Part shown: piece by piece, positions 8,102 to 53,943 of the stretch
Position numbering within the stretch: position 1 is the stretch's first letter
How the letters are laid out: each line of letters opens with the position of its first letter
Assembly: GCA_963711835.1 (NCBI GenBank)
Contig: CAVQFQ010000018.1
Location: 1 to 64,000 of the forward strand
Length of the DNA: 64,000 nt
DNA from: an uncultured delta proteobacterium
GTDB taxonomy: Bacteria; Desulfobacterota; RBG-13-43-22
Direction: 5' to 3'
Made by a program: the position numbers and the translations under genes
The notes under the pieces: generated by a model
Databases searched by the model: none
The model's input: the letters and a program-made list of their open reading frames with translations, nothing else
What the model was told of the DNA's origin: nothing

Positions 8102-8343
8102 GGGGGCTTCCCCTTCAGCCCTTATGTTTAAATTCCCTATTTATATTAGTGTGTTAAAAAGAATAAAAAGTTGGAATGCGAATTGCTTATTTCTTTATGG
8201 AAAAATTTGTTCCGCTATTATATAGAGTAATCAATTCGATTTGACCATAACAAAATAAGGATCATCTCCAAAAAAGCTGGCGATGATAGAAGGTTCGAGG
8301 ATTCAGGGGTTCAAGTGAAATGCTTAGAAATTACGAGGATGGA

Positions 8344-11300
8344 ATGAAAAACCGTGCCATCGGCCTGATTTTGGGGATTGTCCTCTTTTCTCTTTTCCGG
8401 GCCCCCGCAGCCGGGCTGGCCTCGGAGAAAATATTTACCATCCAGGTCAGCAGTTGTCTTCTGGCTGAAAGTGCCGAGCAAAAATTTCAAGAGGCAGTCC
8501 AAAAACTGAAGGAAAAAGAGCGGCCCGCCCTTCGAATTGAGAAGATTAAAAATTTTTACACCGTCAGGATCGGCAGCTTCGATACAAAATCGGAGGCCCA
8601 AAAATATCTATCCCTGATTTCTACCCGCCAGCCCCAGGCCTATATCCTGGAAGGGATTAATGATTCCCGGCGATTGATTAAAACAGCCGATCCATCCCCC
8701 CCGGCCTTTACTCACCCTTCCGGTCCGGGTAATCCCAAAGCCCCTGACCCGGAAACCAATTGGGGCCAGGCCAAGGAACTGGCCAACAAAGGGGAGTATC
8801 AAAAGGCCTTAAGACTTCTGGAGCCTTTCATCTCCAACCCCTTGGATTATCCGGCCCTCATGACGGATTATCTGGTTATTCTGATCTGGGATAAAAGAGG
8901 AGAAGAGGCCATTAAGCTCTTCGAGGCCTTACCCCCTTCCTTTCCCAAACGGCCCTATCTGTTACGCAACCTGGGAAAAGTTTATTATGATAACGGGGCA
9001 TTTTCAAAGGCCTTATCCTTATATCAAGACGCCTTGCAACAAACACCATCCGACGAACAGGCCCAGGTCGGCCTGACGCTCAGTCTGATCCGGACCGGCC
9101 AGACTAATAAGGCCTCCAAGGCCCTCGAAGTTTTCTTAAAAGAAAATCCCCACTCGTTTGCCTTAGGGCTGGCTCAAGCCCGCCTTTTGGCCCTTCAGGG
9201 TCAAACCCTTCCGGCCTTAAAGGCCTTTCGGACCTTAACAGAACAACACCGGAAGGAGAGCAATTCCGTTTATTCCGTTCAGGAAGAGCTTTTCAGCGAT
9301 CTTCCGGCAGCAAAGAAAGAGGACCTCTTAGCCGGCCTTCACAGCGCCATGGAAAAGGGAGACACCCTGGCTGCCCTGGACCATATCTGGGTTTCGAGCC
9401 TCAACAAAGAGTACCCGGCAGCCATAAAAACCTTTGAAGCTAAACCCGTTGAACCAGAGAAATATCCCGAATACCATCTTTCCTGGGTGGCCTGGGCCTA
9501 TTTTAAGACCGGCCAATTGGAAAAAGCCAGATCCCTGTATCAAACCATCCTGAAGAATACCCCGAATTATCTTCGAGCTCGTCTGGGGCTGGCCTATTGT
9601 CTGGCCGCGTCCGGGGAGGGCGATCAGGCCCTGCCCCTTCTCGACCCCATGGTCGAAGCGGACCCCGACACCCTGGATATCCGATTTGCCCGGGCCTTTG
9701 TTTATGAAAAATTAAGGAGGTTTTGGCCGGCCATCCTGGAATACGACCTGATCCTGAAACGTTCCCCTGAAAATCCCACGGCCAGGAAGTTAAGACTCCA
9801 GGCCCTTTCCGATCTGGGGGCCAGTTCCATTGCCCTGGATGCCGCTGTTAAGGAAATGCCCCGTGATCAGGAACTTGCCAAAACCTTACAAGGCGACCTG
9901 GCTGTAGACCGGATCAATTGGGAAGAACCCCGGGAGGCCTTAACCATCCTTACCCCGCTCCTGGTGGAGCCGGGAAATTTAAGGGCCAGGTTTGACGCCC
10001 TGGTGGCCCTGGTTGAAAATAAGAATATGCCCGAAGCCGTCAAGGCCTATAATCAGCTTATCTTGGAAAAGATTCCCATCCCTTATTGGGTCTTACAGCA
10101 GGTAGCCAGCGCCTATTTATATCTGGAAGAGCCGGAAAAGGCCCTGCAACTCTATGATAAGGTACTGGAAGAAAACCCGACCTCTTTTGTCGCCCGTATG
10201 GGAAAGTTTTATACCCTCCAGGAGATGCGCCAATGGAAAGCGGGACGGGAATTGCTGGACAGCCTCGATCATGAAATACCGGCGGTTTTAGGTGAAGGGA
10301 ATTTTACCTATCCTAACTGGCCCAAAATGGAGATAGCCTTAGACCGGGCCTGGTTCCTGGCTTACGAAGGACGGTTGGCGGAAGCGGAAGGCCTTTTCTG
10401 GGAACTTCGTAAAAAGGCCCCGGCCCATATGGGGGCCCGCACCGGCCTGGCCCAGGTTTATTTGTGGCGCGGCTGGCCCGACAGGGCTTTGCGGGAATTT
10501 AATATCGTCGACACCTTAGACCCGGCTTCGTACAAAGCGGCTATCGGCCGGGCCCTGGCCCTGAATGATCTCATATTAAAAAAAGAGGCCCGCCAATTAG
10601 CGGAATCCCTTTACCGGGAACATCCTGAAGACAAGCATGTGCAGCAATTGGTCCGCCGTCTCGAGGTGGAAGATAAAAATGAACTGGTGGCGGACTTTGT
10701 CTTTCATCGGGATGAGGATGGCTATGAAGACTCGAAGTTTAGCCTGACCCTCACCTCCCGGCCCTGGTTCTATAAGACCCGTTTTTACGCTTTTCTTTTA
10801 TGGGAGCAGAGTTCCTTTGAGAACCTGATGCAGTCTTACCGCCGAGCCGGATTGGGGATAACCCACCTCTTTAATCGAAATTGGGGCTTTCGACAGCATT
10901 TTTCAATCGATTATGACAGCGGCGGGAAATTCGGATCTTACACCCAAATCCATTATGCCCCGGATGATTATTGGAAATTCAGTCTCTCGTATGATTCCTA
11001 TTCGACCGATATCCCCTTGCGGGCCCGCGTTTTCGGCATCACCGGTGACCAGCTCTCCGGTCAGATCAATTTTCGGGAAAGTGATTGGCGCCAGGTTTAT
11101 TTAACCCTTAATGTTTTCAAGTATTCCGACGGCAATGAGAGAGACCAGATCCTGCTGGGCTATGAACAAGGTTTGCTGGTTAAAAATGACTGGCGGATGA
11201 GGCTCTATTTGGACCTCTTTATGTCCAACAATACCCGCGGTGATGCCCCTTATTTTAATCCCTCCCAGGATCTGAGTTTTACCGTTACCCATTTGACCGA

Positions 11301-11538
11301 ACTGACCCACTGGAGAATCTATAACCAGGCCTTTGTCCAAAAACTTTTTCTGACCTTGGGGACCTATGTCCAGCACGGCTATGCCCCGGAAGCCATCTGG
11401 TCGGTCCGCTACCAGCAGGATATCGATTTTTCAGACACCCAGGCCTTACTCTGGGGGATTACCTACGGTAGAAGGGTCTATGACGGGGATCCAGTGGACG
11501 ACTACACCTTTTACCTGACCTATCGCTGGAGGTTTTAA
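8344..11538 (+). CDS. pgaA: PNAG export porin with N-terminal SPOR-like domain, TPR repeats and C-terminal beta-barrel
   Basis: Signal peptide, many TPRs, the PYFNP motif and a terminal YRWRF barrel signal; first gene of pgaABCD. Confidence 0.88.
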   Translation: MKNRAIGLILGIVLFSLFRAPAAGLASEKIFTIQVSSCLLAESAEQKFQEAVQKLKEKERPALRIEKIKNFYTVRIGSFDTKSEAQKYLSLISTRQPQAYILEGINDSRRLIKTADPSPPAFTHPSGPGNPKAPDPETNWGQAKELANKGEYQKALRLLEPFISNPLDYPALMTDYLVILIWDKRGEEAIKLFEALPPSFPKRPYLLRNLGKVYYDNGAFSKALSLYQDALQQTPSDEQAQVGLTLSLIRTGQTNKASKALEVFLKENPHSFALGLAQARLLALQGQTLPALKAFRTLTEQHRKESNSVYSVQEELFSDLPAAKKEDLLAGLHSAMEKGDTLAALDHIWVSSLNKEYPAAIKTFEAKPVEPEKYPEYHLSWVAWAYFKTGQLEKARSLYQTILKNTPNYLRARLGLAYCLAASGEGDQALPLLDPMVEADPDTLDIRFARAFVYEKLRRFWPAILEYDLILKRSPENPTARKLRLQALSDLGASSIALDAAVKEMPRDQELAKTLQGDLAVDRINWEEPREALTILTPLLVEPGNLRARFDALVALVENKNMPEAVKAYNQLILEKIPIPYWVLQQVASAYLYLEEPEKALQLYDKVLEENPTSFVARMGKFYTLQEMRQWKAGRELLDSLDHEIPAVLGEGNFTYPNWPKMEIALDRAWFLAYEGRLAEAEGLFWELRKKAPAHMGARTGLAQVYLWRGWPDRALREFNIVDTLDPASYKAAIGRALALNDLILKKEARQLAESLYREHPEDKHVQQLVRRLEVEDKNELVADFVFHRDEDGYEDSKFSLTLTSRPWFYKTRFYAFLLWEQSSFENLMQSYRRAGLGITHLFNRNWGFRQHFSIDYDSGGKFGSYTQIHYAPDDYWKFSLSYDSYSTDIPLRARVFGITGDQLSGQINFRESDWRQVYLTLNVFKYSDGNERDQILLGYEQGLLVKNDWRMRLYLDLFMSNNTRGDAPYFNPSQDLSFTVTHLTELTHWRIYNQAFVQKLFLTLGTYVQHGYAPEAIWSVRYQQDIDFSDTQALLWGITYGRRVYDGDPVDDYTFYLTYRWRF

Positions 11539-13460
11539 TGTTCAGGCGCTTCTTACTTCCCCTGATAGCCTTTTTTCTATTAGTACCGGAAACCTCTCGG
11601 GCCGCTCAGGAGATGAAACCGGGAGAATTTCTGGTGCTCACCTACCACGCCGTTCTTCCCAAAGCCAAGCCCTCGGACACCTATACCCTTTCCCAGGACC
11701 GCTTTGTAGAGCAGATGGAATATCTGCGGACCCACGGCTACCAGCCCGTTTCTTTAAATGACCTCCTTCAGGCCAGGCAGGGCATTAAGGCCCTTCCCCA
11801 AAAACCGGTCCTTCTTTCATTTGATGATGCCTATCTCTCCTATTATCAATTCGTCATCCCGGTTCTCGAAAAATATAATTTCCCGTCCATCCTGGGGGTG
11901 GTGGGCCGTTTTATCGAGAATCCCCCGCCGGGATTCCCGGAACCCCTGATGAGCTGGGATCAGCTTCGGCAAGCGGCCTCAAATAAACTGGTCGAAGTGG
12001 TTTCCCATACCTATGACCTTCACAAGGCCGTTATCTACAACCCCCAGGGAAATGTCGGGGCGGCTGTGGCCTTGCGGGCCTATAATCCGGCCACCCGACG
12101 CTACGAAAGCGATGCGGAGTATAGAAGCCGTATGGCCGCCGATTTTAAACAGCAGGAGGTCCTCTTTCAAAAGCAGTTGGGCGTTATTCCCCGGGCCGTT
12201 ATCTGGCCTTATGGGTGGAATACCGCCCTGAGCCGGGAAGTGGCCGGGAAGGCGGGATTTCTTTTTGGTTTTACCACGGAAGAAGGCTTGGCCGATCTGA
12301 ACCGCCTGGACGGCATCAACCGCTTTATGATCCGGAACGACTCCCTGCCGGACTTTATCCGGATCCTGAACCACCCGGATCGTGAAAGGCCTCTTCTGCG
12401 AGTTGTTCAGGCGGATCTGGACCTGATTTATGACCCACGATCCGAGGAGCAAACCGATCGCAATTTGGGTAAGTTAATTGATCGCCTGATGGCCATGAAG
12501 GTCAATACGGTTTTCCTCCAGGCCTTTGCCGACCCGGAGGGCACCGGCAACATCAAGAGTGTTTACTTCCCCAACCGGGTCTTGCCGGTCCGAGCCGATA
12601 TTTTCAGCCATGCCGTTCATCAGATGGTCATCCGCGGGCTGAAAGTTTACGCCTGGTTGCCCACCCTCAGTATTGATCTGCCTGACCCCGGACTTAATGA
12701 CCGTCTCAAGGTGCGGGAAAAAACAGATGAAAAAACCCGGCTCAGCCGATCCTGGTATAACCGATTAACCCCTTTTGATGACCGGGTTAGAGAACTGGTG
12801 GGCACCCTCTACGAAGATATAGCCGCGCAGGCCCTGATCCATGGGGTTCTCTTCCAGGATGACGCCTATTTGACCGACCGGGAAGATTTTCATCCCTCGG
12901 CCCTGGCCCTTTATGAAACGCGTTTCGGGAAGGACTTCGCCAAACAGATCCAAGATCCCAAAGGAGAAAAACAATGGGCTCGTTTCAAAACCGAGACCTT
13001 GCTCCATTTTACCGAGGACCTGAAGGAAAGGGTCCGCCGCTTTCGGCCCCAGGCCTTGTTTGCCAGGAATCTGTATGCCCGGGTCCTTATGGATCCCGAA
13101 TCGGAGAATTGGTTCGCCCAGAACTACGAGCTCTCCTTGAACCACTATGATTATGTAGTCCTGATGGCTTATCCCCAAATGGAAAAAGCCGCTCAGCCCA
13201 GGCCCTGGCTCAGGCAATTAACTCAAAAAGTGAAGGCCTTTCCTGCCGGACCCCCCAAGACCGTTTTTAAACTCCAGTCCTTTGACTGGCAGACCAGGTC
13301 CTGGCTGCCCGCTGCCTTTCTTCTGGAAGAAATGCGTGATATTTTAAGTTCGGGCGGAAAACATATCGGCTATTATCCGGATAATCTTTGGGAGGACAAA
13401 CCCGATCTGGAAACCGTTTGGCTGGAAATGTCCACCCAAAGCTATCCTTTTTTGAAATAG
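11538..13460 (+). CDS. pgaB: PNAG N-deacetylase / GH153 hydrolase
   Basis: LTYH, LSFDDAY, SHTYDLH, DLDLIYD, VFLQAFADP and GYYPDN motifs. Confidence 0.93.
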   Translation: MFRRFLLPLIAFFLLVPETSRAAQEMKPGEFLVLTYHAVLPKAKPSDTYTLSQDRFVEQMEYLRTHGYQPVSLNDLLQARQGIKALPQKPVLLSFDDAYLSYYQFVIPVLEKYNFPSILGVVGRFIENPPPGFPEPLMSWDQLRQAASNKLVEVVSHTYDLHKAVIYNPQGNVGAAVALRAYNPATRRYESDAEYRSRMAADFKQQEVLFQKQLGVIPRAVIWPYGWNTALSREVAGKAGFLFGFTTEEGLADLNRLDGINRFMIRNDSLPDFIRILNHPDRERPLLRVVQADLDLIYDPRSEEQTDRNLGKLIDRLMAMKVNTVFLQAFADPEGTGNIKSVYFPNRVLPVRADIFSHAVHQMVIRGLKVYAWLPTLSIDLPDPGLNDRLKVREKTDEKTRLSRSWYNRLTPFDDRVRELVGTLYEDIAAQALIHGVLFQDDAYLTDREDFHPSALALYETRFGKDFAKQIQDPKGEKQWARFKTETLLHFTEDLKERVRRFRPQALFARNLYARVLMDPESENWFAQNYELSLNHYDYVVLMAYPQMEKAAQPRPWLRQLTQKVKAFPAGPPKTVFKLQSFDWQTRSWLPAAFLLEEMRDILSSGGKHIGYYPDNLWEDKPDLETVWLEMSTQSYPFLK

Positions 13461-13467
13461 GACCCCC

Positions 13468-14715
13468 ATGCAGGCCTTTTTTCAAACCCTGAACGAATTT
13501 GTTTATCTCTACCCGCTCCTGATGAGTCTGGTCTGGATGATTGGGGCGACAATTTTTTATAGCCGCCACGAAGGGAAAAAAGCCACCCTCCCGGTCCTGA
13601 ACGAATACCCCTTTTTTTCGATCCTGATTCCCTGCCATAATGAGGAAAAACAGATCCGGGAAACCGTTCTCCATCTCCTGGACCAGGATTATCCCAACTT
13701 CGAGATCCTGGCTATTGATGACGGCAGCACGGATAAGACCGCCGACCTCCTCCATGAACTCAGTCGAGGCCAGGAACGGGTTCGAGCCCTCTATTTAAGG
13801 GAAAACCAGGGGAAAGGATCGGCCTTAACCCTGGGTTCTTTAATGGCCCGGGGGGATTTAATCGTCACCATCGATGCCGATGCTTTATTGGATGTCTCGG
13901 CCCTTAAATGGCTGGCCTGGCATTTCCTTAACTTCCCTCGGGTCGGGGCCATCACCGGAAACCCCCGGGTCCTGAACCGTACCTCTCTGCTGGGCAAAAT
14001 ACAGACCGGTGAATACGCCACTATTATCGGGCTCATCAAACGGACCCAGCGTTTATTGGGCAAGGTATTGACCGTTTCCGGTGTGATCGCAGCCTTCCGG
14101 AAACAGGCCCTCTTCTCGGTCGGATTCTGGGATCCCACCATGGTCACCGAGGATATCGATATCACCTGGAAACTGGAAAAGCGCTTTTGGGATGTCCGCT
14201 ACGAGCCCCATGCCGTCTGCTGGATACGAGTACCCGAGACGCTTCGAGGCCTTTGGCGCCAGCGCCTGCGCTGGGCCCAGGGAGGGATCGAGGTCATGAA
14301 AAAACATTGGGATATCTGGGGGCACTGGAGACAACGGCGTTTGTGGCCGGTTTATCTGGAATATGTCGCCAGCGCAGTCTGGGCCTATGCCTTCTGGTCG
14401 ATCTTGATCTTGTGGGGGATCCAGGAAATCTTCCAGCTCGTCTTCCCGGTTTCGTTCAAACCCCCCATCCCTCCCCGTTGGACCGGTTCCATTCTGGCTC
14501 TGGCCTGTACCATTCAGTTCCTGGTGAGTATTTGCGTGGATCGAAGATACGAAAAAAAACTTTTTAAGTATCTTTTCTGGGTCATCTGGTACCCTTTTTT
14601 ATACTGGATGATTAATGCCTTGACCTTGGTTATCGCCACCCCTAAAGCCCTTTTTAAGAAAAAGGGCACCCGGGCGGTTTGGGCCAGTCCCGACCGGGGG
14701 CTGGATAAACTATAA
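13468..14715 (+). CDS. pgaC: Poly-beta-1,6-GlcNAc synthase (GT2)
   Basis: DDGS, DAD, TED and QRLRW motifs; ends WASPDRG. Confidence 0.95.
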   Translation: MQAFFQTLNEFVYLYPLLMSLVWMIGATIFYSRHEGKKATLPVLNEYPFFSILIPCHNEEKQIRETVLHLLDQDYPNFEILAIDDGSTDKTADLLHELSRGQERVRALYLRENQGKGSALTLGSLMARGDLIVTIDADALLDVSALKWLAWHFLNFPRVGAITGNPRVLNRTSLLGKIQTGEYATIIGLIKRTQRLLGKVLTVSGVIAAFRKQALFSVGFWDPTMVTEDIDITWKLEKRFWDVRYEPHAVCWIRVPETLRGLWRQRLRWAQGGIEVMKKHWDIWGHWRQRRLWPVYLEYVASAVWAYAFWSILILWGIQEIFQLVFPVSFKPPIPPRWTGSILALACTIQFLVSICVDRRYEKKLFKYLFWVIWYPFLYWMINALTLVIATPKALFKKKGTRAVWASPDRGLDKL

Positions 14716-14739
14716 GCCGGAGGAGGGATCCCTTAGTCC

Positions 14740-15231
14740 ATGCCTGAAATCGAAATTATCGACAACCCCAAGCTGAAAAGTTTTTTAAGAACGGTGACCG
14801 AGGCGGGTTTCACCAGCCTGATGTGGGGGGGCTGGATCTATCTCTTTTTGCCCGTTTTGAATATTATCTTATGGTACTTTGGAATACGGCTTTTTTATCT
14901 CGAAGTGGTTCAGACAGCCGGTTATAAAGAGTTTTTTGTACTCTTAGGCCGGGTGGGCTGGAGTATTTTAATTATCTTTGCGATTTTACGGTTGTGGGGC
15001 TTTTATAATCTCCGGAGATTCGGCAAACGGAATCGCCGTACCCAACACCCAGCCAATCAGGAGAATGAAAAAATGGCGGCCTATTTTCATCTGACCCCCT
15101 CTCAGTTCGATCGAATACGCTCCAGCCGGGAAGCGGTTTGGCCGGTTATTATGGAGCCGGAACTGGATGTTCAGGAGATGCTGAGTACGAAACAAAACCC
15201 CGATCTTCTTGCCGGAGGCAAAACGGCTTAA
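14740..15231 (+). CDS. pgaD: PNAG biosynthesis membrane protein
   Basis: Two TM helices and the WGFYNLRRF motif; follows pgaC. Confidence 0.85.
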   Translation: MPEIEIIDNPKLKSFLRTVTEAGFTSLMWGGWIYLFLPVLNIILWYFGIRLFYLEVVQTAGYKEFFVLLGRVGWSILIIFAILRLWGFYNLRRFGKRNRRTQHPANQENEKMAAYFHLTPSQFDRIRSSREAVWPVIMEPELDVQEMLSTKQNPDLLAGGKTA

Positions 15232-17342: not shown

Positions 17343-17557
17343 GGTTTTAGTTTCCTGCAAAAACATTTAGAGTAAGAATAAAGGGTCCTGCCCCTTATCA
17401 GGACCCTCTCTCTACCCCTGATTAAATCCACTGACAGATGGCACAACTTTATGGGATGGCTCTATCCTATTCCATACTGTAAATTCCTAATAAGGGATTC
17501 CATGTGAAAAAGTGATGCACTCCCTGCACCAACGTCCCCCCATACGATAATTTTTTA

Positions 17558-17586
17558 TTGACGCCTGTACAAAAATACAGTATTCA
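17558..17586 (+). promoter_or_regulatory. lexA promoter with a LexA box (CTGT-N8-ACAG, 17565-17580) in the -35/-10 spacer
   Basis: TTGACG at 17558-63, 17 bp spacer, TATTCA. The palindrome CTGTACAAAAATACAG lies 14 bp before the ATG and there is no SD, so the mRNA may be leaderless. Confidence 0.75.
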
Positions 17587-17594
17587 CTAAAATC

Positions 17595-18206
17595 ATGCCA
17601 GCGCTTACAACCCGACAGAATGAGATTTTGGCTTTCCTCCGGGATTACCACAATCACCATGGCTACCCCCCGTCTCTTCGAGAGCTGGCCACCCATTTCC
17701 GGGTCTATCCGAATGCCATCCAGGACCACCTCAAGGCCCTGATACGGAAAGGATATCTGATCCGGGAACCCAACCGCTCCCGGGGGCTGCGTCTGATCCC
17801 TTTTACCCGCTCTTTGCGTACCATCCCCCTCTATGGGGCCATCCCGGCGGGAGACCCCCTGCTTATCGAGGAAACCCCTGAGGGCTATATGGTCCTGCCG
17901 GAAGTCTGGACCCGCGGGAAGGAGGTCTTTCTCCTCCGGGTCCGGGGAGAGAGCATGAGCCCTTACATCCTTCCGGGGGATCAGGTCATCGTCCGTCGCC
18001 AGGAGCACCTTCCCCAGGGGGCGGTGGGGGTCTTTCGCCTGGAAGGGGAAGTTACCCTGAAGCGCTACTTTCGCGAGAAGGATCGCGTCATACTGAAAGG
18101 GGATTCCCCGGAGTTTGTCCCCATGGTTTTGAAAGGGCGGGAACTGGCGGCTCTGGTCATCCTGGGCAGGGTGACCGGGATCTATCGTTCCGTGGAGAAA
18201 GGATGA
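17595..18206 (+). CDS. lexA: SOS repressor LexA
   Basis: LTTRQ..HGYPPSLRELA winged HTH, IPAG cleavage site, GESM (Ser) and VTLKR (Lys). Confidence 0.93.
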   Translation: MPALTTRQNEILAFLRDYHNHHGYPPSLRELATHFRVYPNAIQDHLKALIRKGYLIREPNRSRGLRLIPFTRSLRTIPLYGAIPAGDPLLIEETPEGYMVLPEVWTRGKEVFLLRVRGESMSPYILPGDQVIVRRQEHLPQGAVGVFRLEGEVTLKRYFREKDRVILKGDSPEFVPMVLKGRELAALVILGRVTGIYRSVEKG

Positions 18207-18235
18207 ATCAATGGTTTTGAGGGCTGCCTTGAAAA

Positions 18236-18829
18236 ATGAATGACCTGATTCCCTTAAAAGAAATTAGACGGCTGGCCTTATCCGGAGGAAGCATCCTCTT
18301 TTTTGGAGAGGCCATGTCCCGCCTCTCGGCCTACCTGATGGGTCTGCTGTCGGCCCGAGGGTCACCTCTTACCCTGGTTGATGCCGCCCAAGCCTTTGAT
18401 CCCTATCGGGTAGCCAGGATAGGCCGCTTTAAGGGAATTCCCCCGCGCCTGCTCCTGGAACGTATCCGCCTCAGCCGGGCCTTCACCTGCCACCAACTGG
18501 TAACCCTGCTCTGTGAGACCCTGCCTCGGGACGGAAGGAAAGAGCCCCTTTTCATCCTGGGTCCCTGTGGTCTGTTTTATGATGATCAGGTGGCCTTGAA
18601 GGAGCGGCAGGCCCTTTTCAAACAAGTACTCCGTTCCCTGAAAGGGTTAAAAGAAAGAGGCCGGAGGATTTTTCTCTTCCAGCCCCCGTTAGCCAGGCAA
18701 ATCAAAACCTATTATTTCGGCCGGGACCTGGCCCGTTCGGTCCGCTGGGTTATCCGAGTTCAGTGGGCGAAAGAAAAATTGGAAGGCCGGCTTTATCCCT
18801 CCTTCGCCCTTCCGGCGAGAAAGGATTAG
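18236..18829 (+). CDS. Degenerate RecA/RadA-fold protein (ImuA-like / PolB2-associated)
   Basis: LVDAAQAFDPY and RIRLSRAFTCHQL RadA-like motifs; no Walker A. Confidence 0.7.
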   Translation: MNDLIPLKEIRRLALSGGSILFFGEAMSRLSAYLMGLLSARGSPLTLVDAAQAFDPYRVARIGRFKGIPPRLLLERIRLSRAFTCHQLVTLLCETLPRDGRKEPLFILGPCGLFYDDQVALKERQALFKQVLRSLKGLKERGRRIFLFQPPLARQIKTYYFGRDLARSVRWVIRVQWAKEKLEGRLYPSFALPARKD

Positions 18830-18831
18830 CG

Positions 18832-19107
18832 GTGGGACGGACCGTCCTGCCTTTCAGCCAGGCCTTGGAGCGAGAGTATGGAGACTGGAAGAAGTTCCGC
18901 CGCGGATTGCGTCGGGAGGACCAGGAGATTTTAGACCGGCTTTTCGACCTGGCCCGCATCCATGTCCAGGCCGGGGTCTATGCCTCCCGCCCCTGGCCGT
19001 TGGAGACCATCCTGATCTCAATTCTCATTGAACAGGAAAAGGGCCTCCAGACCCTCCGGAAAGAGGTAACGGAAATGCGCGACCAACTGCTCCATCTTGA
19101 GAAATAA
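18832..19107 (+). CDS. Small alpha-helical PolB2-associated protein (91 aa)
   Basis: GTG start after an AAGGA SD. MGRTV..W..FRRGLR.EDQ..LDRLF resembles the small protein encoded beside archaeal PolB2. Confidence 0.72.
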   Translation: MGRTVLPFSQALEREYGDWKKFRRGLRREDQEILDRLFDLARIHVQAGVYASRPWPLETILISILIEQEKGLQTLRKEVTEMRDQLLHLEK

Positions 19108-19114
19108 ACAAGCA

Positions 19115-21421
19115 ATGCCTTCCCACGGCTGGCTTATTGATCTCTATGTCCGGGAAGATTTCCTGGCCCTCTGGTTCCGGCTCCGATCCGGGGAACTCCT
19201 TTGCCTGACCGATTCCTTTCCCTATCGTTTTTATGCCTGGGGAAACCCTTCGGCCCTCCGCCATTTGGAAAAAACCCTAAGACCCTATTTACGAAATACG
19301 GCCTGGACCCGGCGGATCGAATTCTGGAGCGGGAAACCGATCTCGGTGCTGGAACTGGAAATCCGTTCTTTAGAGAAACTGCCCCAAGTTCAGCGATTAC
19401 TGGCCACGTGTCCGGAAGGCCTTACCCTTTATAACTGTGACCTGAGCATCCCCCAGTATTATGCCTATGAGAAAGGGTTGTTTCCTTTATGCTCCTGTGA
19501 AATAGAGTGGGAACGGGGAAGCCTGAAGACCCTTAAGGTCTTGAGCTCTCCCTGGGATCCGGATGCCGATCTGCCTGAACTGAAGGTCCTGAAAATCGGC
19601 CTCACCGGTCATCCCCAGATCTCCCTGGACCGGGGGAATTCCATTCAAATTTTGCAGGAAGGTGTTTCGTTTGAAATAGAGGCCTCGGATATACCCGGGC
19701 TCCTCCGGAAACTGAACCATTGCCTGATGCGCCTGGACCCGGATCTGATCCTCTCCCGTCATGGAGACGCCCGCATCTTGCCTTTCCTCTGGAAGTGGGC
19801 TCAGAAAGAAAAAGTCCCTTTGGGCCTGGATCGGGATCCCCGGCCTCCCCTGCGGGCCAAGATAGGCCAAGGCCGCTCTTATTTTTCCTATGGCCAGGTC
19901 CTTTATCAAAGCACGGCGTTCCCTCTTTACGGCCGTCTCCATATCGATCAGGAAAATTCCTTTTTCTATAAAGAAGCCGGCCTGGAAGGAATCTTCTTTC
20001 TCTCCCGCCTGACCAAGCTGCCGGTTCAGACCCTGGCCCGCGCCACGCCGGGAACGGCCATCACCTCCATGCAACTGGACCGGGCCGTCCGGAAGAGGAT
20101 ACTCATTCCCTGGAAAAAAGGTCGGCCCGAAACCTTCAAAACCGCCTGGGAACTCCTGGTGGCCGACAAGGGCGGGCTGGTCTTTCAGCCTCCCATCGGC
20201 CTCAAGGAAAGGGTGGCCGAAATCGATTTTGTCTCCATGTATCCCAGCATCATGGTCCGACACAATATTTCGCCCGAGACCATGCTTTGCCGCTGCTGCC
20301 CGGAGCCGGTGGTGCCGGAGGCAGGCACCAACATCTGCCGGAAGCGGGAAGGGTTGGTGCCCCAAACTCTGCGCCCCATATTGAAATTAAGGGATGAATT
20401 AAAACATCGGATCAAGACCGGTCATCCGAAAGGGCCTCTTTATAAATCGATGCGGCAGGCCCTGAAGTGGATTCTGGTAACCTGCTTTGGCTATATGGGC
20501 TACAAGAATGCCCGCTTCGGCTGCATCGAGGCCCACGAAGCCATTACTGCCTTTGGTCGAGAGAAGCTGTTGCAGGCCAAGGAGTGCGCCGAAGAACAAG
20601 GTTTCCAGGTCCTCCACGGCCTGACCGATTCGCTTTGGATTCAGGCAGAGGGTTTGGATGAGACCAAGGTAGAAGACCTGCTGATCGCCATCCGGGAGCG
20701 GACCGGCCTGGACATCAGCCTGGAAGGGATCTATGACTGGATCATCTTTCTGCCATCCAGGGTCCGGGCCAGCCGTCCGGTGGCCAATCGTTATTTCGGG
20801 CTTTTCCAGGATGGGACAGTGAAAATCCGGGGGATCGCCTGCTGCTGCCATGACTCCCCGCCCTTCATCAAAAATGCCCAGAAGGATCTTTTGCTGACTC
20901 TTTCGGCGGCCAAGGATCGAGCGCATTTGGAGCAACAGGTCCCCAGCGTGCTGGAACGCCTGGAGGAATATGTTCTTAGTCTAAGAGATGGCCAAGTGCC
21001 GTCCCGTGACTTAATCATCCATCGCCGCCTAAGTCAAACCCTGGAGGAATATAAAGTCAATACCGCTTCCGTTCTGGCCCTGCAGCAATTAGAGGCCGTG
21101 GGTATCACCCTTTATCCGGGCCAACGGGTGGGCTACGTTTTGCGTGACACCGCTTCAGCCTCTTCTTCTGAAGCCGGCGTTCTTCCCGCCCCTTTCTTGG
21201 ATGGAGGAGAATCTTACGACCGGAAGAAATATCTGGATCTCCTGCTCCGGGCCGCTGCTGAAGTTCTGGTTTCCTTCGGGTTAAACCTTAAAGATCTGGA
21301 GTTTAAATTTGGGTCTGGACCACCAAGCCAAACAACTGCAAGAAGAGGCCGGCGTTGTCATGACCATCTCGGTCGGGAGGCTTTCAAGGGTTTACAGCGA
21401 GCCATAAAGTTGTTAAGATAA
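19115..21421 (+). CDS. Family B DNA polymerase, PolB2 (Dpo2)-type
   Basis: Motif A EIDFVSMYPSIM; motif B KWILVTCFGYMG; motif C HGLTDS (first Asp lost); exonuclease motifs not recognisable. Confidence 0.88.
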   Translation: MPSHGWLIDLYVREDFLALWFRLRSGELLCLTDSFPYRFYAWGNPSALRHLEKTLRPYLRNTAWTRRIEFWSGKPISVLELEIRSLEKLPQVQRLLATCPEGLTLYNCDLSIPQYYAYEKGLFPLCSCEIEWERGSLKTLKVLSSPWDPDADLPELKVLKIGLTGHPQISLDRGNSIQILQEGVSFEIEASDIPGLLRKLNHCLMRLDPDLILSRHGDARILPFLWKWAQKEKVPLGLDRDPRPPLRAKIGQGRSYFSYGQVLYQSTAFPLYGRLHIDQENSFFYKEAGLEGIFFLSRLTKLPVQTLARATPGTAITSMQLDRAVRKRILIPWKKGRPETFKTAWELLVADKGGLVFQPPIGLKERVAEIDFVSMYPSIMVRHNISPETMLCRCCPEPVVPEAGTNICRKREGLVPQTLRPILKLRDELKHRIKTGHPKGPLYKSMRQALKWILVTCFGYMGYKNARFGCIEAHEAITAFGREKLLQAKECAEEQGFQVLHGLTDSLWIQAEGLDETKVEDLLIAIRERTGLDISLEGIYDWIIFLPSRVRASRPVANRYFGLFQDGTVKIRGIACCCHDSPPFIKNAQKDLLLTLSAAKDRAHLEQQVPSVLERLEEYVLSLRDGQVPSRDLIIHRRLSQTLEEYKVNTASVLALQQLEAVGITLYPGQRVGYVLRDTASASSSEAGVLPAPFLDGGESYDRKKYLDLLLRAAAEVLVSFGLNLKDLEFKFGSGPPSQTTARRGRRCHDHLGREAFKGLQRAIKLLR

Positions 21422-24286: not shown

Positions 24287-24730
24287 TTGATTGCCGTCGA
24301 TGCTCTTCCACATCGTTTCCCTTTTCTGTTTCTCGACCGGATCCAGACCCTGATCCCAGGCGAGCAAGGCATCTTTTGTTTTCGGAGCTCGGCCGATGGT
24401 TATTATCTTTCGGGAAGCACCCCGCCTTCTTTTCAGCAGGCCCTCCTTTTGGAAGCCATGGCCGAGGGGGCCGGACTCATTTTGATCAGCGAGTCAGGCC
24501 AAAAGGATGAACCCGCTCCGGGGAAAGGCTATCTTTTGCGATTGGACCGGGTATTTTTTGAGGCCCTTCCCCAGGCCGGCCAGGAGATATGTATCGTTGT
24601 GAATAAAAAAATGGTCTTCGGGCAGATGGTCCAATTTCAGGCTCAGGCGAAATCCGGGGACGTCGTTGTCGCCCGGGCAGAACTCACCTTGTGGCGCGAA
24701 CCAAGGGAACAGGGTCAGGAGGATCGTTGA
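24287..24730 (+). CDS. FabZ/FabA-like acyl-ACP dehydratase (hotdog fold)
   Basis: LPHRFPFLFLD and LLEAMAE motifs. Confidence 0.75.
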   Translation: MIAVDALPHRFPFLFLDRIQTLIPGEQGIFCFRSSADGYYLSGSTPPSFQQALLLEAMAEGAGLILISESGQKDEPAPGKGYLLRLDRVFFEALPQAGQEICIVVNKKMVFGQMVQFQAQAKSGDVVVARAELTLWREPREQGQEDR

Positions 24731-25455
24731 AAGTCGGTTTGCTTATCCCGGCCTATAATGTTGAAGATCAGATCGGCGCCGTTATCGAGGGTGCCCGGCC
24801 CTGGGTGGATGGAATTTTGGTCCTGGACGACGGTTCCTCGGACCATACCCGCGAAAAGGCCTTAGGTCTGGGGACGGAAGTCATATCGAATAAGCCTAAT
24901 CGAGGGAAGGGGTATGCCTTGAAGCAAGGTTTTGCCTATTTCCGTTTTCATGGGTTTGAGACCATACTGACCATAGATGGCGATGGACAGCATGACCCCC
25001 GATATATCCCCCACTTTCTCGAGGCCTATAAAAAGGGAAAGGCCCAGGTCATTATCGGGTCCCGAATGGAAGAAGGTTCAAAAATACCCAAAGCCCGCTA
25101 TGTTCTCAACCTGATCGGGACCTACTGCCTTTCCTGGGCTACCGGACAATATGTCCCCGATTCCCAGAGCGGCTATCGTCTCTATGAGACCAAAGCCTTG
25201 GAGGGTTTATCCTTGAAAGATAACCGGTTCGCCCTGGAAACCGAAGTATTGATCAAGCTGGCCAAACGAGGTTGTGTCTTTTCCTCTATCCCCATCCCGG
25301 CTATTTATAATGAGGTCCGGCAGGCTTCTAATTTCCGGCCGGTGAAAGACATCTATCAGATCAGCATGTTGGTCCTAAGGAGTATTTTTTGGAAACGAGA
25401 AACCCCGCGGCCGAAAGGAACGTTCCTGTTGCCCTTTCGCCGGCGATTCGGTTGA
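24727..25455 (+). CDS. GT2 glycosyltransferase (DPM-synthase-like)
   Basis: IPAYN, DDGSSD, DGDGQH and DSQSGYR motifs; TTG start overlaps the upstream stop. Confidence 0.88.
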   Translation: MKVGLLIPAYNVEDQIGAVIEGARPWVDGILVLDDGSSDHTREKALGLGTEVISNKPNRGKGYALKQGFAYFRFHGFETILTIDGDGQHDPRYIPHFLEAYKKGKAQVIIGSRMEEGSKIPKARYVLNLIGTYCLSWATGQYVPDSQSGYRLYETKALEGLSLKDNRFALETEVLIKLAKRGCVFSSIPIPAIYNEVRQASNFRPVKDIYQISMLVLRSIFWKRETPRPKGTFLLPFRRRFG

Positions 25456-25459
25456 AGCG

Positions 25460-26683
25460 GTGGAGAAAAGAAAAGCCGTTATAACCGGCATCGGGGTGGT
25501 CACCTCCATCGGAACAAACCGCCGGGAGTTCTGGCAAAACCTTATCGCCGGCAAGACCGGTATCGGCCGGATAGACCTGTTTGATACGGCCCAATACCGA
25601 GTCACGATTGCCGCCCAGGCCAGGGGTTTTTCGGGCCGGGAGCACTTTACCTCGCGGGAATGCCGGCGGCTGTCCCGCTCCGACCTCCTGGGCCTGGTGG
25701 CAGCCCGGGAAGCCCTGGAAGAGATCCCCTTTAACACCCCGGCCCTTCCTCCCGACCGGATAGCCGTTGTCTTGGGCGCTGGAGCAGGGGGGATCTATCC
25801 GGCTGAAATCTATCGTCAGGACCTTTATCGTCATAAAAAACCGCGCTATCCTTCTTTTCTGCTTTCGTTTCCCATGTGCAGTCTGACCGATCATATCGGC
25901 AACCGCTGGGGCCTGACCGGTCCCCGGGCCACTATTGATACGGCCTGTTCCTCGACCATCACGGCCATCGGACTCGGTTTGGATTTCATCCAAAGAGACC
26001 AGGCTGATCTGGTCATTACCGGCGGCAGTGAATCCCTCTCGCAATTGACTTTTTCCGGATTTAATGCTTTGAAAGCCTTGGACCCCGAACCCTGCCGGCC
26101 TTTCGACCGGACCCGGCAAGGGCTTTCTCTGGGCGAAGGGGCCGCCCTGCTGATTCTTGAAGAAAAGGAAAGGGCCCGGGAACGGGGAGCTCCGGTCTAT
26201 GCCGAGGTATTGGGCTATGGCACCTCCGGGGATGCCCATCACATAACGGCTCCCCATCCGGAAGGGCGGGGGGCGATTTTGTCTATGGAGCGGGCTATCG
26301 CCAGGGCCGGGCTTTCGGCCGATGATATCGATTTCATCAATGCCCACGGTACGGCCACCCCGGCCAACGACCCGATTGAAACCAGGGCCATTAAAAAGGT
26401 TTTTGGAGATCGTGCCTATCGGATCCCGGTTACCTCCATTAAATCCTCGATCGGCCATTGTCTGGGCGCAGCCGGTGTTTTAGGGGCCGTCGCCGGTATC
26501 CTGGCCTTAGACCAAGGGGTCCTGCCCCCTACCCTGCACTTTAGGGAGCGGGATCCGGCCTGTGATCTGGATTATGTTTTTAACCAGGCCCGGAAAAAAG
26601 AGATACAAACCGTGCTTTGCAACGCCTTCGCCTTCGGGGGAAATAACAGTTCCATTGTCTTTTCAAAACCGGATTATGCATAA
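25460..26683 (+). CDS. Beta-ketoacyl-ACP synthase (FabF-like KS) with intact Cys-His-His triad
   Basis: DTACSS, NAHGTAT, GHCLGAAG and FAFGGNN motifs. Confidence 0.9.
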   Translation: MEKRKAVITGIGVVTSIGTNRREFWQNLIAGKTGIGRIDLFDTAQYRVTIAAQARGFSGREHFTSRECRRLSRSDLLGLVAAREALEEIPFNTPALPPDRIAVVLGAGAGGIYPAEIYRQDLYRHKKPRYPSFLLSFPMCSLTDHIGNRWGLTGPRATIDTACSSTITAIGLGLDFIQRDQADLVITGGSESLSQLTFSGFNALKALDPEPCRPFDRTRQGLSLGEGAALLILEEKERARERGAPVYAEVLGYGTSGDAHHITAPHPEGRGAILSMERAIARAGLSADDIDFINAHGTATPANDPIETRAIKKVFGDRAYRIPVTSIKSSIGHCLGAAGVLGAVAGILALDQGVLPPTLHFRERDPACDLDYVFNQARKKEIQTVLCNAFAFGGNNSSIVFSKPDYA

Positions 26684-27884
26684 CGCCGCGATTGTGGTGA
26701 CCGGTATAGGGGTTATCTCTTCCTTGGGGATCGGCCGGGAGGTCTTCTGGAAACAGTTTCTGGAAGGGCGGACCGGCATCAGACCTTTGACGGAAATTTC
26801 GCCTTTGGAATCCCCTATAGACTTCGGCGGAGAGGTGCCGGGATTCAAGCCCAAGGAATATCTCTCCCCTTTGGTTTATCGCAAGATGGGCCGGACCTCC
26901 CGTCTATCCGTGGCCGCCAGCATAGAGGCCCTTAGTGATGCCGGATTAACCATCAATGAGGCTGGTCAGGACCGGATCGGGGTGGTCATGGGAACGGGCT
27001 ATGGAAATTCAGGACTGACCGACGATTTTTTTTTAAGTTTCATGGAAGGGGGCGCCCAGGGAGCAAATCCCCTCCTTTTTGCCGACACCGTCCCCAACAC
27101 GGCCGCCAGCCACATCAGTTTATATCATAAACTTCGGGGTCCTTTGACGACCTTTTGCCAGAATTTGATTTCCTCTGAACTGGCCCTGGCTTATGCCTGC
27201 CAGGTTCTCGATTCCGGCCAGGCCGAAGCCATGCTGGTGGGCGGGGCGGATGAGCTCTCTCCGATTCTCCTTCATGCCTTTTCCGTCTTTAAAGCCTTGA
27301 ACCCATCCCCAAACCCGATCCTTGGTAAAGGGATCATTCTGGGAGAAGGGGCCTGTATATTAGTCCTGGAGCGGGCCGAAAAGGCCCTGGCCCGGGGGGC
27401 CCGGATTTATGGGGAGATCAGGAATTGTGTTTTAAACAGCGGGGTAACTCAACCGGTCCAGTTTGAAGGAGAGGGTAACGAAATGAAAAAGGCGGTTTCA
27501 CGTTGCCTCAGCCCTGAAAATGAACCGGAAGCAGTGGAGTTGATCGGGCTTTCGGCCAATTTTTCTAAGGACCTGGACCGCCTGGAATATGCCGTCCTCA
27601 AAGAGGTCTTTGGGGCTAAACTCTCTCAAATAGCCTTATCCCCATTAAAATATTTCAGCGGAGAATTTGCCGGCATGGGCACCTTGAGACTGGCGGCCCT
27701 GCTTCTGGCTATGAGGGATCAGGTCCTTCCCCCCAGCGTCAACCCTTCCGAATTAGTGCCTGGTAAGCCTTGGGACCGGGCCTTTATTCCCGCCAGGTCG
27801 GGACCGGTAACCCAGGCCCTATTAACCGGGTTTTCCTTTGGGGGAGGAAATGCCTGTCTCTTAGTGAAGAAACCGACCTATTAA
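26676..27884 (+). CDS. KS-fold chain-length-factor-like protein, catalytic residues lost
   Basis: KS fold with QNLISSE in place of TACSS and both His residues absent; ATG overlaps the KS stop. Confidence 0.8.
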   Translation: MHNAAIVVTGIGVISSLGIGREVFWKQFLEGRTGIRPLTEISPLESPIDFGGEVPGFKPKEYLSPLVYRKMGRTSRLSVAASIEALSDAGLTINEAGQDRIGVVMGTGYGNSGLTDDFFLSFMEGGAQGANPLLFADTVPNTAASHISLYHKLRGPLTTFCQNLISSELALAYACQVLDSGQAEAMLVGGADELSPILLHAFSVFKALNPSPNPILGKGIILGEGACILVLERAEKALARGARIYGEIRNCVLNSGVTQPVQFEGEGNEMKKAVSRCLSPENEPEAVELIGLSANFSKDLDRLEYAVLKEVFGAKLSQIALSPLKYFSGEFAGMGTLRLAALLLAMRDQVLPPSVNPSELVPGKPWDRAFIPARSGPVTQALLTGFSFGGGNACLLVKKPTY

Positions 27885-51834: not shown

Positions 51835-53943
51835 ATGGCTACCCCTTCTCACATCTATAACTTTAGGAATGAGGGTCAACTCGAGGAGGCCGATCTTCGG
51901 CACTATAATTTATATAATCTTATTGAGTTGTTAGGGTCGGAAGATCTTGAAAAGCGATTTAACAATGTAAAAAAAATTAATCGCAAAAGACTGATCGATC
52001 AAATCAATTATCTCAATTTTGCAGATGGTAATTTGATCATTGTCTTTAAGCATTCCAGGTACGAGGAACTCTTAACCATCCCGGCCATACCCGATCCTTG
52101 CCAAACCGAAGTTCTTTCCTGCCGGATAGAAAAGACCGGCTATGCTTTCCAGCACCTAAAAGAATCCAGGTTTCTTTGTTTCTACATTGAAGATGGGAGA
52201 AAAGTCCTTTTAGCCCGATCCGAAGAAATTGAACTGATTGATAACGGCCTCTGTATTAAGGTTCCTGAATTTTGTTATGAAATAAGCTCCCGGAAAACAA
52301 GACGCTATGCCTGCCCTGAGATTCAAGCCCAGGTGATCCAAAACGGTATCATCTTTTCCGGGCATCTATCCGTTTTCAGTATCGGCTCTTTTCAGGTTGA
52401 AATTTTCTCCGATGAGAACAGCTCCCTCAAATGGGTCAATGCCGAATATCCGGTTCAGGTTATTCTCAAAAAACAGAACCAGATCCTCTACACCGGCGAA
52501 TGCACTATAATCAAACACAGCCGAAGCCGCGATGCCAAGAGCCTGATTTTACTCCCCAGCCTTTCTCCCATTAAACGATTTAAAAAGAGGGAATTCCGGG
52601 CTCCGAGGCAGAAACTGCATCCCTCTCCGAGCATCTCTTTCCTCCATCCTTTAATCGGGAAATTAATTCACTTGACCGTTTGCGACTTATCCACGTCGGG
52701 TTTTTCCATTGAGGAGGAAGGGGAATCGTCCAACCTGTTGCCCGGCATGATCATCCCGGAAATAAAAATAGACCTGGCTACGGCCACGAACCTGGCCTGC
52801 CGCGCCCAGGTCGTCTTCAGGAATCCTTTGGATCAAAATATCATTAAGTGCGGGCTCACCATATTAAGTATGTCTACCGAAGACTATATCAGGTTATCCA
52901 ATATGGTGACCAAAACCTTCAATAACAACCTGGATGTTTGCGGCCTTATCGATTTGGAAAATCTATGGAATTTTTTCTTTGAAACCGGCTTTATCTATCC
53001 TAAAAAGTACCACTACATTCAATCCAACAAAGAAGCGTTTAAAAAATTATACGAAAAAATCTACACCGGCACCGCCGGAATCGAACGGCATTTCACCTAC
53101 CAGGAGCGCGGGGCCATCCTGGGCCATATTTCCATGTTGCATATCTACGATACCACCTGGATGCTGCACCATTATGCCACCACCCCGAACTCGAGGCATA
53201 AGAGGGTGGGCTTGACGTTGTTACAGCAAATTGAACGCTTTATTATCGATTCGCATTATATCGATTCGACTAAGATGGATTATATGATCTGTTTTTTCCG
53301 TCCGGACAATAAATTCCCCAATCTGGTTTTCGGGGGAGCGGCTCGGACCTTGCGGGATCCCCAAATTTGTTCCCTCGACAGCTTTGCCTATTTTAATTAT
53401 CCCCAGGCCTTAAACACCAAGCGGCAGGTTCTACCCCAACCCTGGGCGATGACCCGAACCGATCGGGAAGATCTGGAAGAGCTGCGAAACTTTTATGATC
53501 ATACCTCGGGGGGGCTGATGCTCCAGGCCCTTAATGTACAACCCGGTTTGGAAGAGGACGGTTCCCTCAGCCAGGCTTATCATAAAGTCGGCTTGAAGAG
53601 AGAACGCCACCTGTTATCCATCAAGAAGGATGGAGAAGTAAAAGCGATTATCAATTTGCTTATGACCGAAAAAGGACTCAATCTCTCCGAACTGGCCAAT
53701 TGTGTTTCCCTGATCGTCCTGGATCCCGAAGACTTCCCCTTCGAAATCTTTCTCAAGGCCTTGTCTAACTTGAGCCTGTTTGATGAACGGGAAATCCTCC
53801 CGGTCCTAATCTACCCGGTTCACTACGCCCAGAAATATTCCCTGGCTTATGAAAGAATCTATAATTTATGGGCCTTTAAGGTGGATAACAGCGATTTTTA
53901 CTTCAAGTATATTAACAAGATCTTCTCCCGCATTGTTTCCTAA
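51835..53943 (+). CDS. Large PilZ-domain protein with a putative C-terminal GNAT-like region
   Basis: RKTRR and FRAPR..DLSTSG PilZ-like motifs; the C-terminal pattern RHFTYQ..ILGHISM..WMLHH..FRPDN is reminiscent of acyltransferases. Confidence 0.6.
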   Translation: MATPSHIYNFRNEGQLEEADLRHYNLYNLIELLGSEDLEKRFNNVKKINRKRLIDQINYLNFADGNLIIVFKHSRYEELLTIPAIPDPCQTEVLSCRIEKTGYAFQHLKESRFLCFYIEDGRKVLLARSEEIELIDNGLCIKVPEFCYEISSRKTRRYACPEIQAQVIQNGIIFSGHLSVFSIGSFQVEIFSDENSSLKWVNAEYPVQVILKKQNQILYTGECTIIKHSRSRDAKSLILLPSLSPIKRFKKREFRAPRQKLHPSPSISFLHPLIGKLIHLTVCDLSTSGFSIEEEGESSNLLPGMIIPEIKIDLATATNLACRAQVVFRNPLDQNIIKCGLTILSMSTEDYIRLSNMVTKTFNNNLDVCGLIDLENLWNFFFETGFIYPKKYHYIQSNKEAFKKLYEKIYTGTAGIERHFTYQERGAILGHISMLHIYDTTWMLHHYATTPNSRHKRVGLTLLQQIERFIIDSHYIDSTKMDYMICFFRPDNKFPNLVFGGAARTLRDPQICSLDSFAYFNYPQALNTKRQVLPQPWAMTRTDREDLEELRNFYDHTSGGLMLQALNVQPGLEEDGSLSQAYHKVGLKRERHLLSIKKDGEVKAIINLLMTEKGLNLSELANCVSLIVLDPEDFPFEIFLKALSNLSLFDEREILPVLIYPVHYAQKYSLAYERIYNLWAFKVDNSDFYFKYINKIFSRIVS

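Follow-up and report, generated by a model that had tools for sequence, protein, structure and literature searches.

An intact, probably functional LexA-associated PolB2 operon of the known G2 family in an uncultured delta proteobacterium

Introduction

Several published systems resemble the gene cluster described here. Makarova, Krupovic, and Koonin (2014; PMC4104785) named a lexA-radA-arCOG07300-polB2 locus, including the Leptospirillum ferriphilum operon, and inferred a damage-response role for it, and Kazlauskas et al. (2020; PMC7544198) defined the G2 polymerases as nested in archaeal B2. Timinskas, Timinskas, and Venclovas (2025; PMC11791011) named the PolB2 mutasome, modelled 40 pentamers of 1:1:3 composition with a PPB2 trimer, and reported that bacteria show only the order iRadA-PPB2-PolB2. 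In PMC12926913, this system is described as a novel, recently proposed mutasome. Here, we analyzed a 64,000-nucleotide stretch of an uncultured delta proteobacterium (assembly GCA_963711835.1, contig CAVQFQ010000018.1, positions 1 to 64,000; referred to as the window) that carries a lexA-iRadA-PPB2-polB2 cassette at positions 17558 to 21421. The locus is intact, belongs to the G2 PolB2 operon family already described in print, and is probably functional. A first-pass annotation of the sequence had proposed a third type of bacterial mutasome; this is plausible but is not a new inference, since the mutasome was proposed and modelled in PMC11791011 and the locus was named in PMC4104785.

Compared with the bacterial G2 operon (group 1a in PMC11791011), the window has iRadA, PPB2, and polB2 in an identical order and, as in L. 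ferriphilum LFML04_0990-0993, lexA lies upstream. The MGRT arm, the D(K/R) motif, HxxxD, the dead exonuclease, and the predicted iRadA-binding loop are common to both. There is no difference in kind. We saw no clamp motif in the window copy, and many published copies likewise have none. The supplement of PMC11791011, in the part consulted, gives OGP50432.1 as LexA-iRadA-PPB2-x-PolB2; the corresponding protein in our set, P0013, shares 70% identity with the window polymerase.

The archaeal PolB2 of Sulfolobus (Dpo2) belongs to the same polymerase group, shares the motif C change and the absence of proofreading, and has the same partner genes according to PMC11791011. It was found to be damage induced and mutagenic (Feng et al., 2020; PMC7390963). 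Its HxxxD motif is the same, and it is active as an extender; bacterial G2 enzymes were suggested to be possible extenders in that work (Feng et al., 2022; PMC8764526). Dpo2 differs in that it has been tested experimentally, is a much shorter enzyme, and is regulated via Orc1-2 and not LexA (PMC11791011).

By analogy, the cassette would also resemble lexA2-imuA-imuB-dnaE2 and umuDC (Pol V), in which an inducible error-prone polymerase is likewise packed together with a partner of RecA fold. A lexA of its own is common in the imuABC cassette. The window is not a member of these systems: their catalytic subunit is of family C or Y and that of the window is of family B, its partner is RadA derived, and neither UmuD' nor ImuB is related to PPB2. 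Escherichia coli DNA polymerase II (PolB, G1) is an SOS-inducible family B extender, comparable to the proposed role of the window enzyme, but it is a single subunit with an active exonuclease (DEDDy) and an intact YGDTDS and falls in a separate clade.

A PolB2 polymerase with two accessory proteins

The cassette consists of four open reading frames on the + strand: lexA (203 amino acids, 17595 to 18206), iRadA (197 amino acids, 18236 to 18829), PPB2 of the arCOG07300 family (91 amino acids, 18832 to 19107, with a GTG start at 18832), and polB2 of group G2 (768 amino acids, 19115 to 21421). Gaps of 29, 2, and 7 bp separate them, bearing out the tight, co-oriented packing described at first pass. 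The polB2 frame is open from a TTG at 19097, with a likely start at ATG 19115 and a stop at 21421. None of the four frames is disrupted, and the catalytic and interface motifs are complete.

The polymerase scored 421 and 387 bits with the type B (PolB2-like) models of NCBIfam, both under their cut-offs, compared with 114 to 182 bits for the archaeal DNA polymerase I models and 54 to 69 bits for Pol II. As a sequence match, Pyrococcus PolB reached 178 bits versus 55 bits for E. coli Pol II. In a 28-row family B tree, the window protein joined 15 other bacterial or phage-borne relatives and formed with them and three haloarchaeal PolB2 proteins a clade (Shimodaira-Hasegawa approximate likelihood ratio test, 100) apart from Pol II, phage PolB (T4 gp43), and the halovirus enzymes. 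Scores and tree agree with the earlier assignment of the polymerase to the PolB2 type. Within Pfam it matched PF00136 only, and the cassette encodes no C-family or Y-family catalytic subunit.

The motifs described at first pass are present as stated. Motif B reads KWILVTCFGY (with K451), and motif C reads HGLTDS (H501-GLT-D505), in which the first Asp of motif C is replaced by Leu; motif A contains D371, and D351-K352 follows a loop with F341xxA344. Residues D351, D371, K451, H501, and D505 do not vary across the alignment (66 of 66 relatives), indicating selection on the active site. At the ExoI position, the window protein has KIGLT where Pol II has IDIET, and the exonuclease acids are missing. 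The exonuclease domain thus appears to be present but inactivated, which would make the enzyme proofreading-dead, in keeping with the earlier remark that no clear exonuclease was seen.

A model of PolB2 showed a full-length PolB fold, confident over residues 1 to 734, that matches Thermococcales PolB structures. The C-terminal tail of about 30 amino acids (window positions 21317 to 21421) is not conserved, and confidence is low at residues 735 to 758. An assembly error was considered and rejected for this tail: the same tail is found in P0001, a 99% identical protein from a separate assembly, and no clamp motif was seen in the alternative frame inspected by eye. Two relatives (P0005 and P0006) end in QM(V/A)FNW, a QMxFxW-like sequence that resembles a beta-clamp motif and is unlike the window tail.

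The palm contains four cysteines, C392xCC-x12-C408 (window positions 20288 to 20338), that are kept in 59 of the 66 aligned PolB2 proteins. The haloarchaeal B2 proteins have C-x-C-H...C at this place, and the motif is missing from the Chloroflexota copies and from Pol II. The cysteines may form a Zn or Fe-S site. Decay from Arg to Cys within RGIACCCHD was ruled out, as the family reads CC.(R/H)D.

By single-sequence searches, iRadA gave weak matches (Pfam Rad51, E value of 0.037; Protein Data Bank search, E value of 0.011). A profile of 54 iRadA sequences matched archaeal RadA with an E value of 2e-10, and the iRadA model (predicted local distance difference test [pLDDT], 91.8) matched the RAD51/DMC1/RadA fold with a template modelling score of about 0.7. 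It is these profile and fold searches that settle its identity. Walker A is found in 0 of the 54 aligned proteins, and the N-terminal domain is missing. Together, profile and model support an inactive protein of the RadA/Rad51 ATPase fold (iRadA), confirming the description of the second gene as RecA fold without Walker A. The helical PPB2 protein begins with MGRT, and G2-R3-T4 are invariant in 12 of 12 aligned sequences. The PPB2 profile matched the gene 5' of a haloarchaeal (Halomarina) polB2 with an E value of 9e-24, and the iRadA profile matched the same locus with an E value of 5e-7. Because both profiles match one haloarchaeal locus, the bacterial and archaeal cassettes are tied together.

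Modelling of the three-protein complex had been suggested; the PolB2(1-734)-iRadA pair was modelled, with PPB2 outside the model, and scored 0.78 against 0.00 for the best control. The mark applied to such scores is reached by 116 of 157 solved pairs and by 2 of 215 mismatched pairs. The runs agreed in at least 94% of contacts, with a partner pLDDT of at least 80. In the model, the interface centers on PolB2 residues 334 to 351 and includes F341-K-T-A344, which we take to be an FxxA-type motif. This is the loop before DK that was predicted in PMC11791011 to mimic the RadA oligomerization motif.

A likely operator in the lexA promoter and an apparently private LexA

The palindrome CTGTACAAAAATACAG (17565 to 17580, + strand), composed of CTGTAC-AAAA-ATACAG, starts 1 nucleotide past the -35-like hexamer TTGACG (17558 to 17563, + strand) and occupies the spacer between -35 and -10. 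It is the sole CTGT-N8-ACAG in the window. This pattern alone is within chance (one is found in 25 of 100 shuffles, and 21 are found in the whole genome), and the significance of the box comes from positional conservation, not from its single occurrence. A TTGAC[A] stands at the same place 5' of most cassette lexA genes, and at 33 of 49 cassette-associated lexA genes TTGA[C/T] is immediately followed by a palindrome in which 5 or more of the 6 arm pairs match, compared with 136 of 4121 TTGAC sites in the window's own genome, a rough control that is not strictly like for like, with related loci that are not independent. The candidate -10, TATTCA (17581 to 17586), lies 17 nucleotides from TTGACG and is weak, which is why the pair was not called in a promoter scan. 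The lexA ATG lies 8 nucleotides past this candidate, a similarly short distance is seen in many relatives, and no Shine-Dalgarno sequence is evident at 17581 to 17597. This arrangement suggests that the lexA mRNA is near-leaderless or leaderless.

LexA scored 159 bits with TIGR00498 (cut-off, 111) and matched PF01726 and PF00717, corresponding to a winged helix-turn-helix and an S24 peptidase. Ala85-Gly86, Ser120, and Lys156 are all kept. Across the phylum, the predicted operator varies with the recognition helix of LexA. The CTGTAC operator pairs with the helix YP-N-x-IQDH in the window and at three other lexA genes (L022, L023, and L025), which carry a near-identical CTGTAC-N4-GAACAG on their 5' side; a fourth (L026) has the same helix and a degenerate site. 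CCATAC pairs with L-GT or P-GS/AT in the majority of the family, CTA(A/T)AC or GTATAC with P-RA, CTCATC with DY-RA, and a TGTATA-type palindrome, outside the TTGAC rule, with KN-x-FYY. Few independent switches lie behind this pattern, and the covariation supports the palindrome as the LexA operator. In a whole-protein tree, the window LexA was not joined with the other CTGTAC-type LexAs; its helix region is nearest to them (85%, versus 54 to 77% among same-family copies). Divergence of LexA motifs following duplication is a known theme (PMC8565304), and a literature search on LexA motifs and the recognition helix in Deltaproteobacteria found no papers. Taken together, positional conservation and covariation indicate that the palindrome at 17565 to 17580 is likely an operator through which LexA controls the cassette.

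No LexA other than that of the cassette was found in the genome; all single-copy and absence statements for this genome refer to an assembly 89% complete. We found no intergenic box near recA or dinB, either with up to 2 mismatches to CTGTAC-N4-GTACAG or as any CTGT-N8-ACAG, and more degenerate sites are possible. Since a predicted operator lies at the cassette and none was found near recA or dinB, LexA looks dedicated to the cassette, a private rather than a global SOS regulator. A global regulon was considered and rejected: the other CTGT-N8-ACAG-like intergenic sites adjoin an RHS-like region, small DUF433-like genes, a transporter, and a MarR-like gene (labels by sequence reading) and no repair genes. 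In the family, the exact CCATAC-N4-GTATGG is present in 17 of 21 genomes and is single in 15 of the 17, each time 5' of the cassette lexA; a reversed-sequence control gave one site. The family-wide pattern CTGTWC-N4-RWACAG was too degenerate to inform. Thus, the LexA-box promoter read at first pass stands as likely, but "SOS cassette" overstates the case, the predicted operator being essentially confined to the cassette. The genome has RecA, one DnaE, and a single Y-family (DinB-like) gene, and no DnaE2 or UmuC cassette was found in it. With only one DnaE and one Y-family gene found, the cassette may be the main inducible mutator of the cell.

Conservation of the cassette

Among 20 same-family genomes, polB2 was matched in 17, PPB2 in 17, iRadA in 18, and lexA in 19; in the phylum, PPB2 was matched in 42 of 301 genomes. 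We examined 67 loci chosen by PPB2 or PolB2 matches. All four genes were present in 35, and the order was lexA-iRadA-PPB2-polB2 in 35 of 35, so that the gene order anticipated from the single sequence is conserved. The other 32 loci were cut by a contig end, missing lexA (Chloroflexota and Acidobacteriota loci), or split. The compact form seen in the window is similar to the arrangement in other families. Bacterial copies had been called scattered, a description that falls short: in the consulted part of the PMC11791011 supplement, LexA adjoins 108 of 1823 operons. A Leptospira phage record (KF114878; L118:3207-6259) carries iRadA-PPB2-polB2 beside an integrase gene, with lexA not adjacent, and three more Leptospira phage records have the polymerase; such phages are a possible vehicle for spread of the cassette.

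Proposed function and alternatives

We consider it probable that the cluster is a self-contained, LexA-repressed damage-tolerance module in which a proofreading-dead PolB2, iRadA, and a PPB2 trimer extend mismatched or lesion-adjacent primer ends and thereby cause mutations. LexA bound to the palindrome in the promoter spacer would hold all four genes off. As expected from LexA biology, RecA filaments formed on damage-derived single-stranded DNA would cause LexA to cleave itself at Ala85-Gly86, allowing transcription of the operon. PolB2 is then predicted to dock on iRadA via the FxxA-type loop just N-terminal to DK, with one PPB2 MGRT arm inserted between them. By comparison with Sulfolobus Dpo2, another polymerase, possibly the single DinB-like enzyme, would insert opposite the lesion, and PolB2 would extend. 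Induction, catalysis, and mutagenesis of the bacterial cassette are thus inferred by analogy.

Several observations weigh against this proposal. The family B tree came from a quick search and had no rows for chromosomal archaeal B1 or B3. The complex score may stem in part from likeness to solved RadA/RAD51-peptide complexes, and the model was built without PPB2. A simple pattern scan of C termini found no clamp-binding motif in iRadA or PolB2 of the window; among relatives, it found one in 2 of 54 iRadA rows and in 0 of 66 rows for PolB2, some of which were trimmed. The feature is optional in the family. In six same-family genomes, 2.2 to 10.4 kb lie between PPB2 and polB2, and at least 4 relatives' genomes have a polB2 with a frameshift or an interruption. 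As the operon is often broken up in close relatives, the module is dispensable and labile. Finally, our literature search, which covered few subscription journals, found no expression, binding, enzyme, or other experimental study of a bacterial copy, as had been stated at first pass.

One alternative is that the operon is damage induced and the polymerase active, but mainly in accurate gap filling or fork restart with little mutagenesis, so that "mutasome" would be a misnomer in bacteria. We regard this as unlikely. The proofreading acids have been lost, and the tight packing with a dedicated repressor is like that of mutagenic cassettes such as lexA2-imuA-imuB-dnaE2. The genome's own DinB-like gene, which has no box upstream, speaks for accurate synthesis, as do the high fidelity of Dpo2 on undamaged DNA and its poor insertion opposite lesions (PMC8764526); against this, the Sulfolobus orthologue is responsible for targeted mutagenesis (PMC7390963).

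That the copy is a horizontally acquired passenger, decaying and without current function, is hardly credible given that its four frames are intact, its catalytic and interface motifs are all kept, and its GC content (0.53 to 0.55) is the same as that of the adjoining DNA. Such decay would account for the cassette's position, which is unlike that in relatives (an aldolase gene on one side, a PSP1-metG block on the other), for 13 departures at 255 near-invariant columns, and for the unconserved C-terminal tail, and pseudogenized copies do occur among relatives; however, the tail is shared with P0001, and RGIACCCHD is typical of the family. It is very unlikely, too, that the complex has chiefly a structural or regulatory role, for instance by binding to stalled forks or by modulating RecA, and synthesizes little DNA, and that iRadA-PPB2 could act without PolB2; we know of no function of that pair without a polymerase. 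Relatives in which polB2 has been moved or broken but lexA-iRadA-PPB2 remains whole behind a perfect operator are consistent with such a role, as is the Leu at the first Asp of motif C, and the possibility was raised in PMC4104785. Yet Asp371, Asp505, Lys451, and His501 never vary in the alignment, a full-length copy is retained in most genomes whose polB2 is displaced, and archaeal HxxxD enzymes are robust polymerases (PMC8764526).

If the mutagenic damage-tolerance function is correct, a family B complex of archaeal derivation serves as an inducible mutator, beside Pol V and ImuABC, in many bacteria, among them lineages of Desulfobacterota, Chloroflexota, and Leptospira plasmid-prophages, an idea already published in silico. 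Additions to the published account are the series of operators linked to the recognition helix, a LexA that looks private, the possible hotspot for cargo described below for relatives, and the CxCC-x12-C motif; the main text of PMC11791011 does not contain the terms "operator," "promoter," "cysteine," or "zinc," which makes the operator series and the cysteine motif additions. As a compact, intact 3.9-kb unit with its own repressor and a defined predicted operator, the locus is convenient for a first test in bacteria, and the natural series of LexA helix/operator pairs lends itself to study of change in repressor specificity.

Cargo and split cassettes in related genomes

The interrupted PPB2-polB2 intervals (loci L012 to L017, in genomes G014, G009, G016, G005, G007, and G004) hold cargo mostly co-oriented with the cassette. 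There and beside PPB2 in split loci, we found PIN, HepT-like with nucleotidyltransferase, Fic, DNA methylase, XhoI and BsuBI endonuclease, GmrSD, Schlafen, and DUF5131 genes. The interval is possibly an insertion hotspot for defense-type genes behind the LexA promoter. In three genomes (G018, G019, and G020), lexA stands directly 5' of polB2 with no accessory genes. Their cassettes are split (L025 in G018, L026 and L027 in G019, and L021 to L024 in G020), with a CCATAC lexA-iRadA-PPB2 at one place and a CTGTAC-type lexA before polB2 elsewhere; G020 has two full-length and one truncated polB2 copy. Near polB2 copies in these split-cassette genomes, no more than about 3 kb away, are two DUF72 genes.

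A joint reading of these features seems doubtful to us as a whole. It would make the cassette a portable damage module in which small helix changes switch the operator of a private LexA, pairing Gly/Ala with CCATAC, Asn with CTGTAC, and Arg with CTATAC/CTAAAC or CTCATC, so that one cell could run two orthogonal damage circuits. Under this joint reading, G020 would assemble one mutasome in trans from CCATAC lexA-iRadA-PPB2 and CTGTAC lexA-polB2, the junction would catch toxin-antitoxin and restriction-modification genes and make them damage inducible, and the polymerase palm would carry a previously unreported four-cysteine metal site.

Genomic setting

The cassette is flanked by housekeeping genes, with a zinc dehydrogenase and an aldolase gene upstream and a PSP1-domain gene and a metG-like gene (sequence reading) downstream. 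An inverted repeat 3' of the aldolase gene (17380 to 17409; no strand assigned, listed on the - strand, 11-pair stem) is a candidate terminator and a candidate insulator of the cassette from upstream; matches of this kind occur at chance level, and it is therefore a candidate only. Elsewhere in the window, a complete pgaABCD operon (poly-N-acetylglucosamine-type exopolysaccharide) lies at 8320 to 15231. A 702-amino-acid open reading frame at 51835 to 53943, in a lower-GC stretch, had no Pfam match at an E value of 1e-5. On the 3' side of metG, positions 24287 to 27884 hold a FabZ-like gene, a glycosyltransferase gene, and two ketosynthase-like genes (sequence reading), possibly an aryl-polyene or fatty-acid type cluster.

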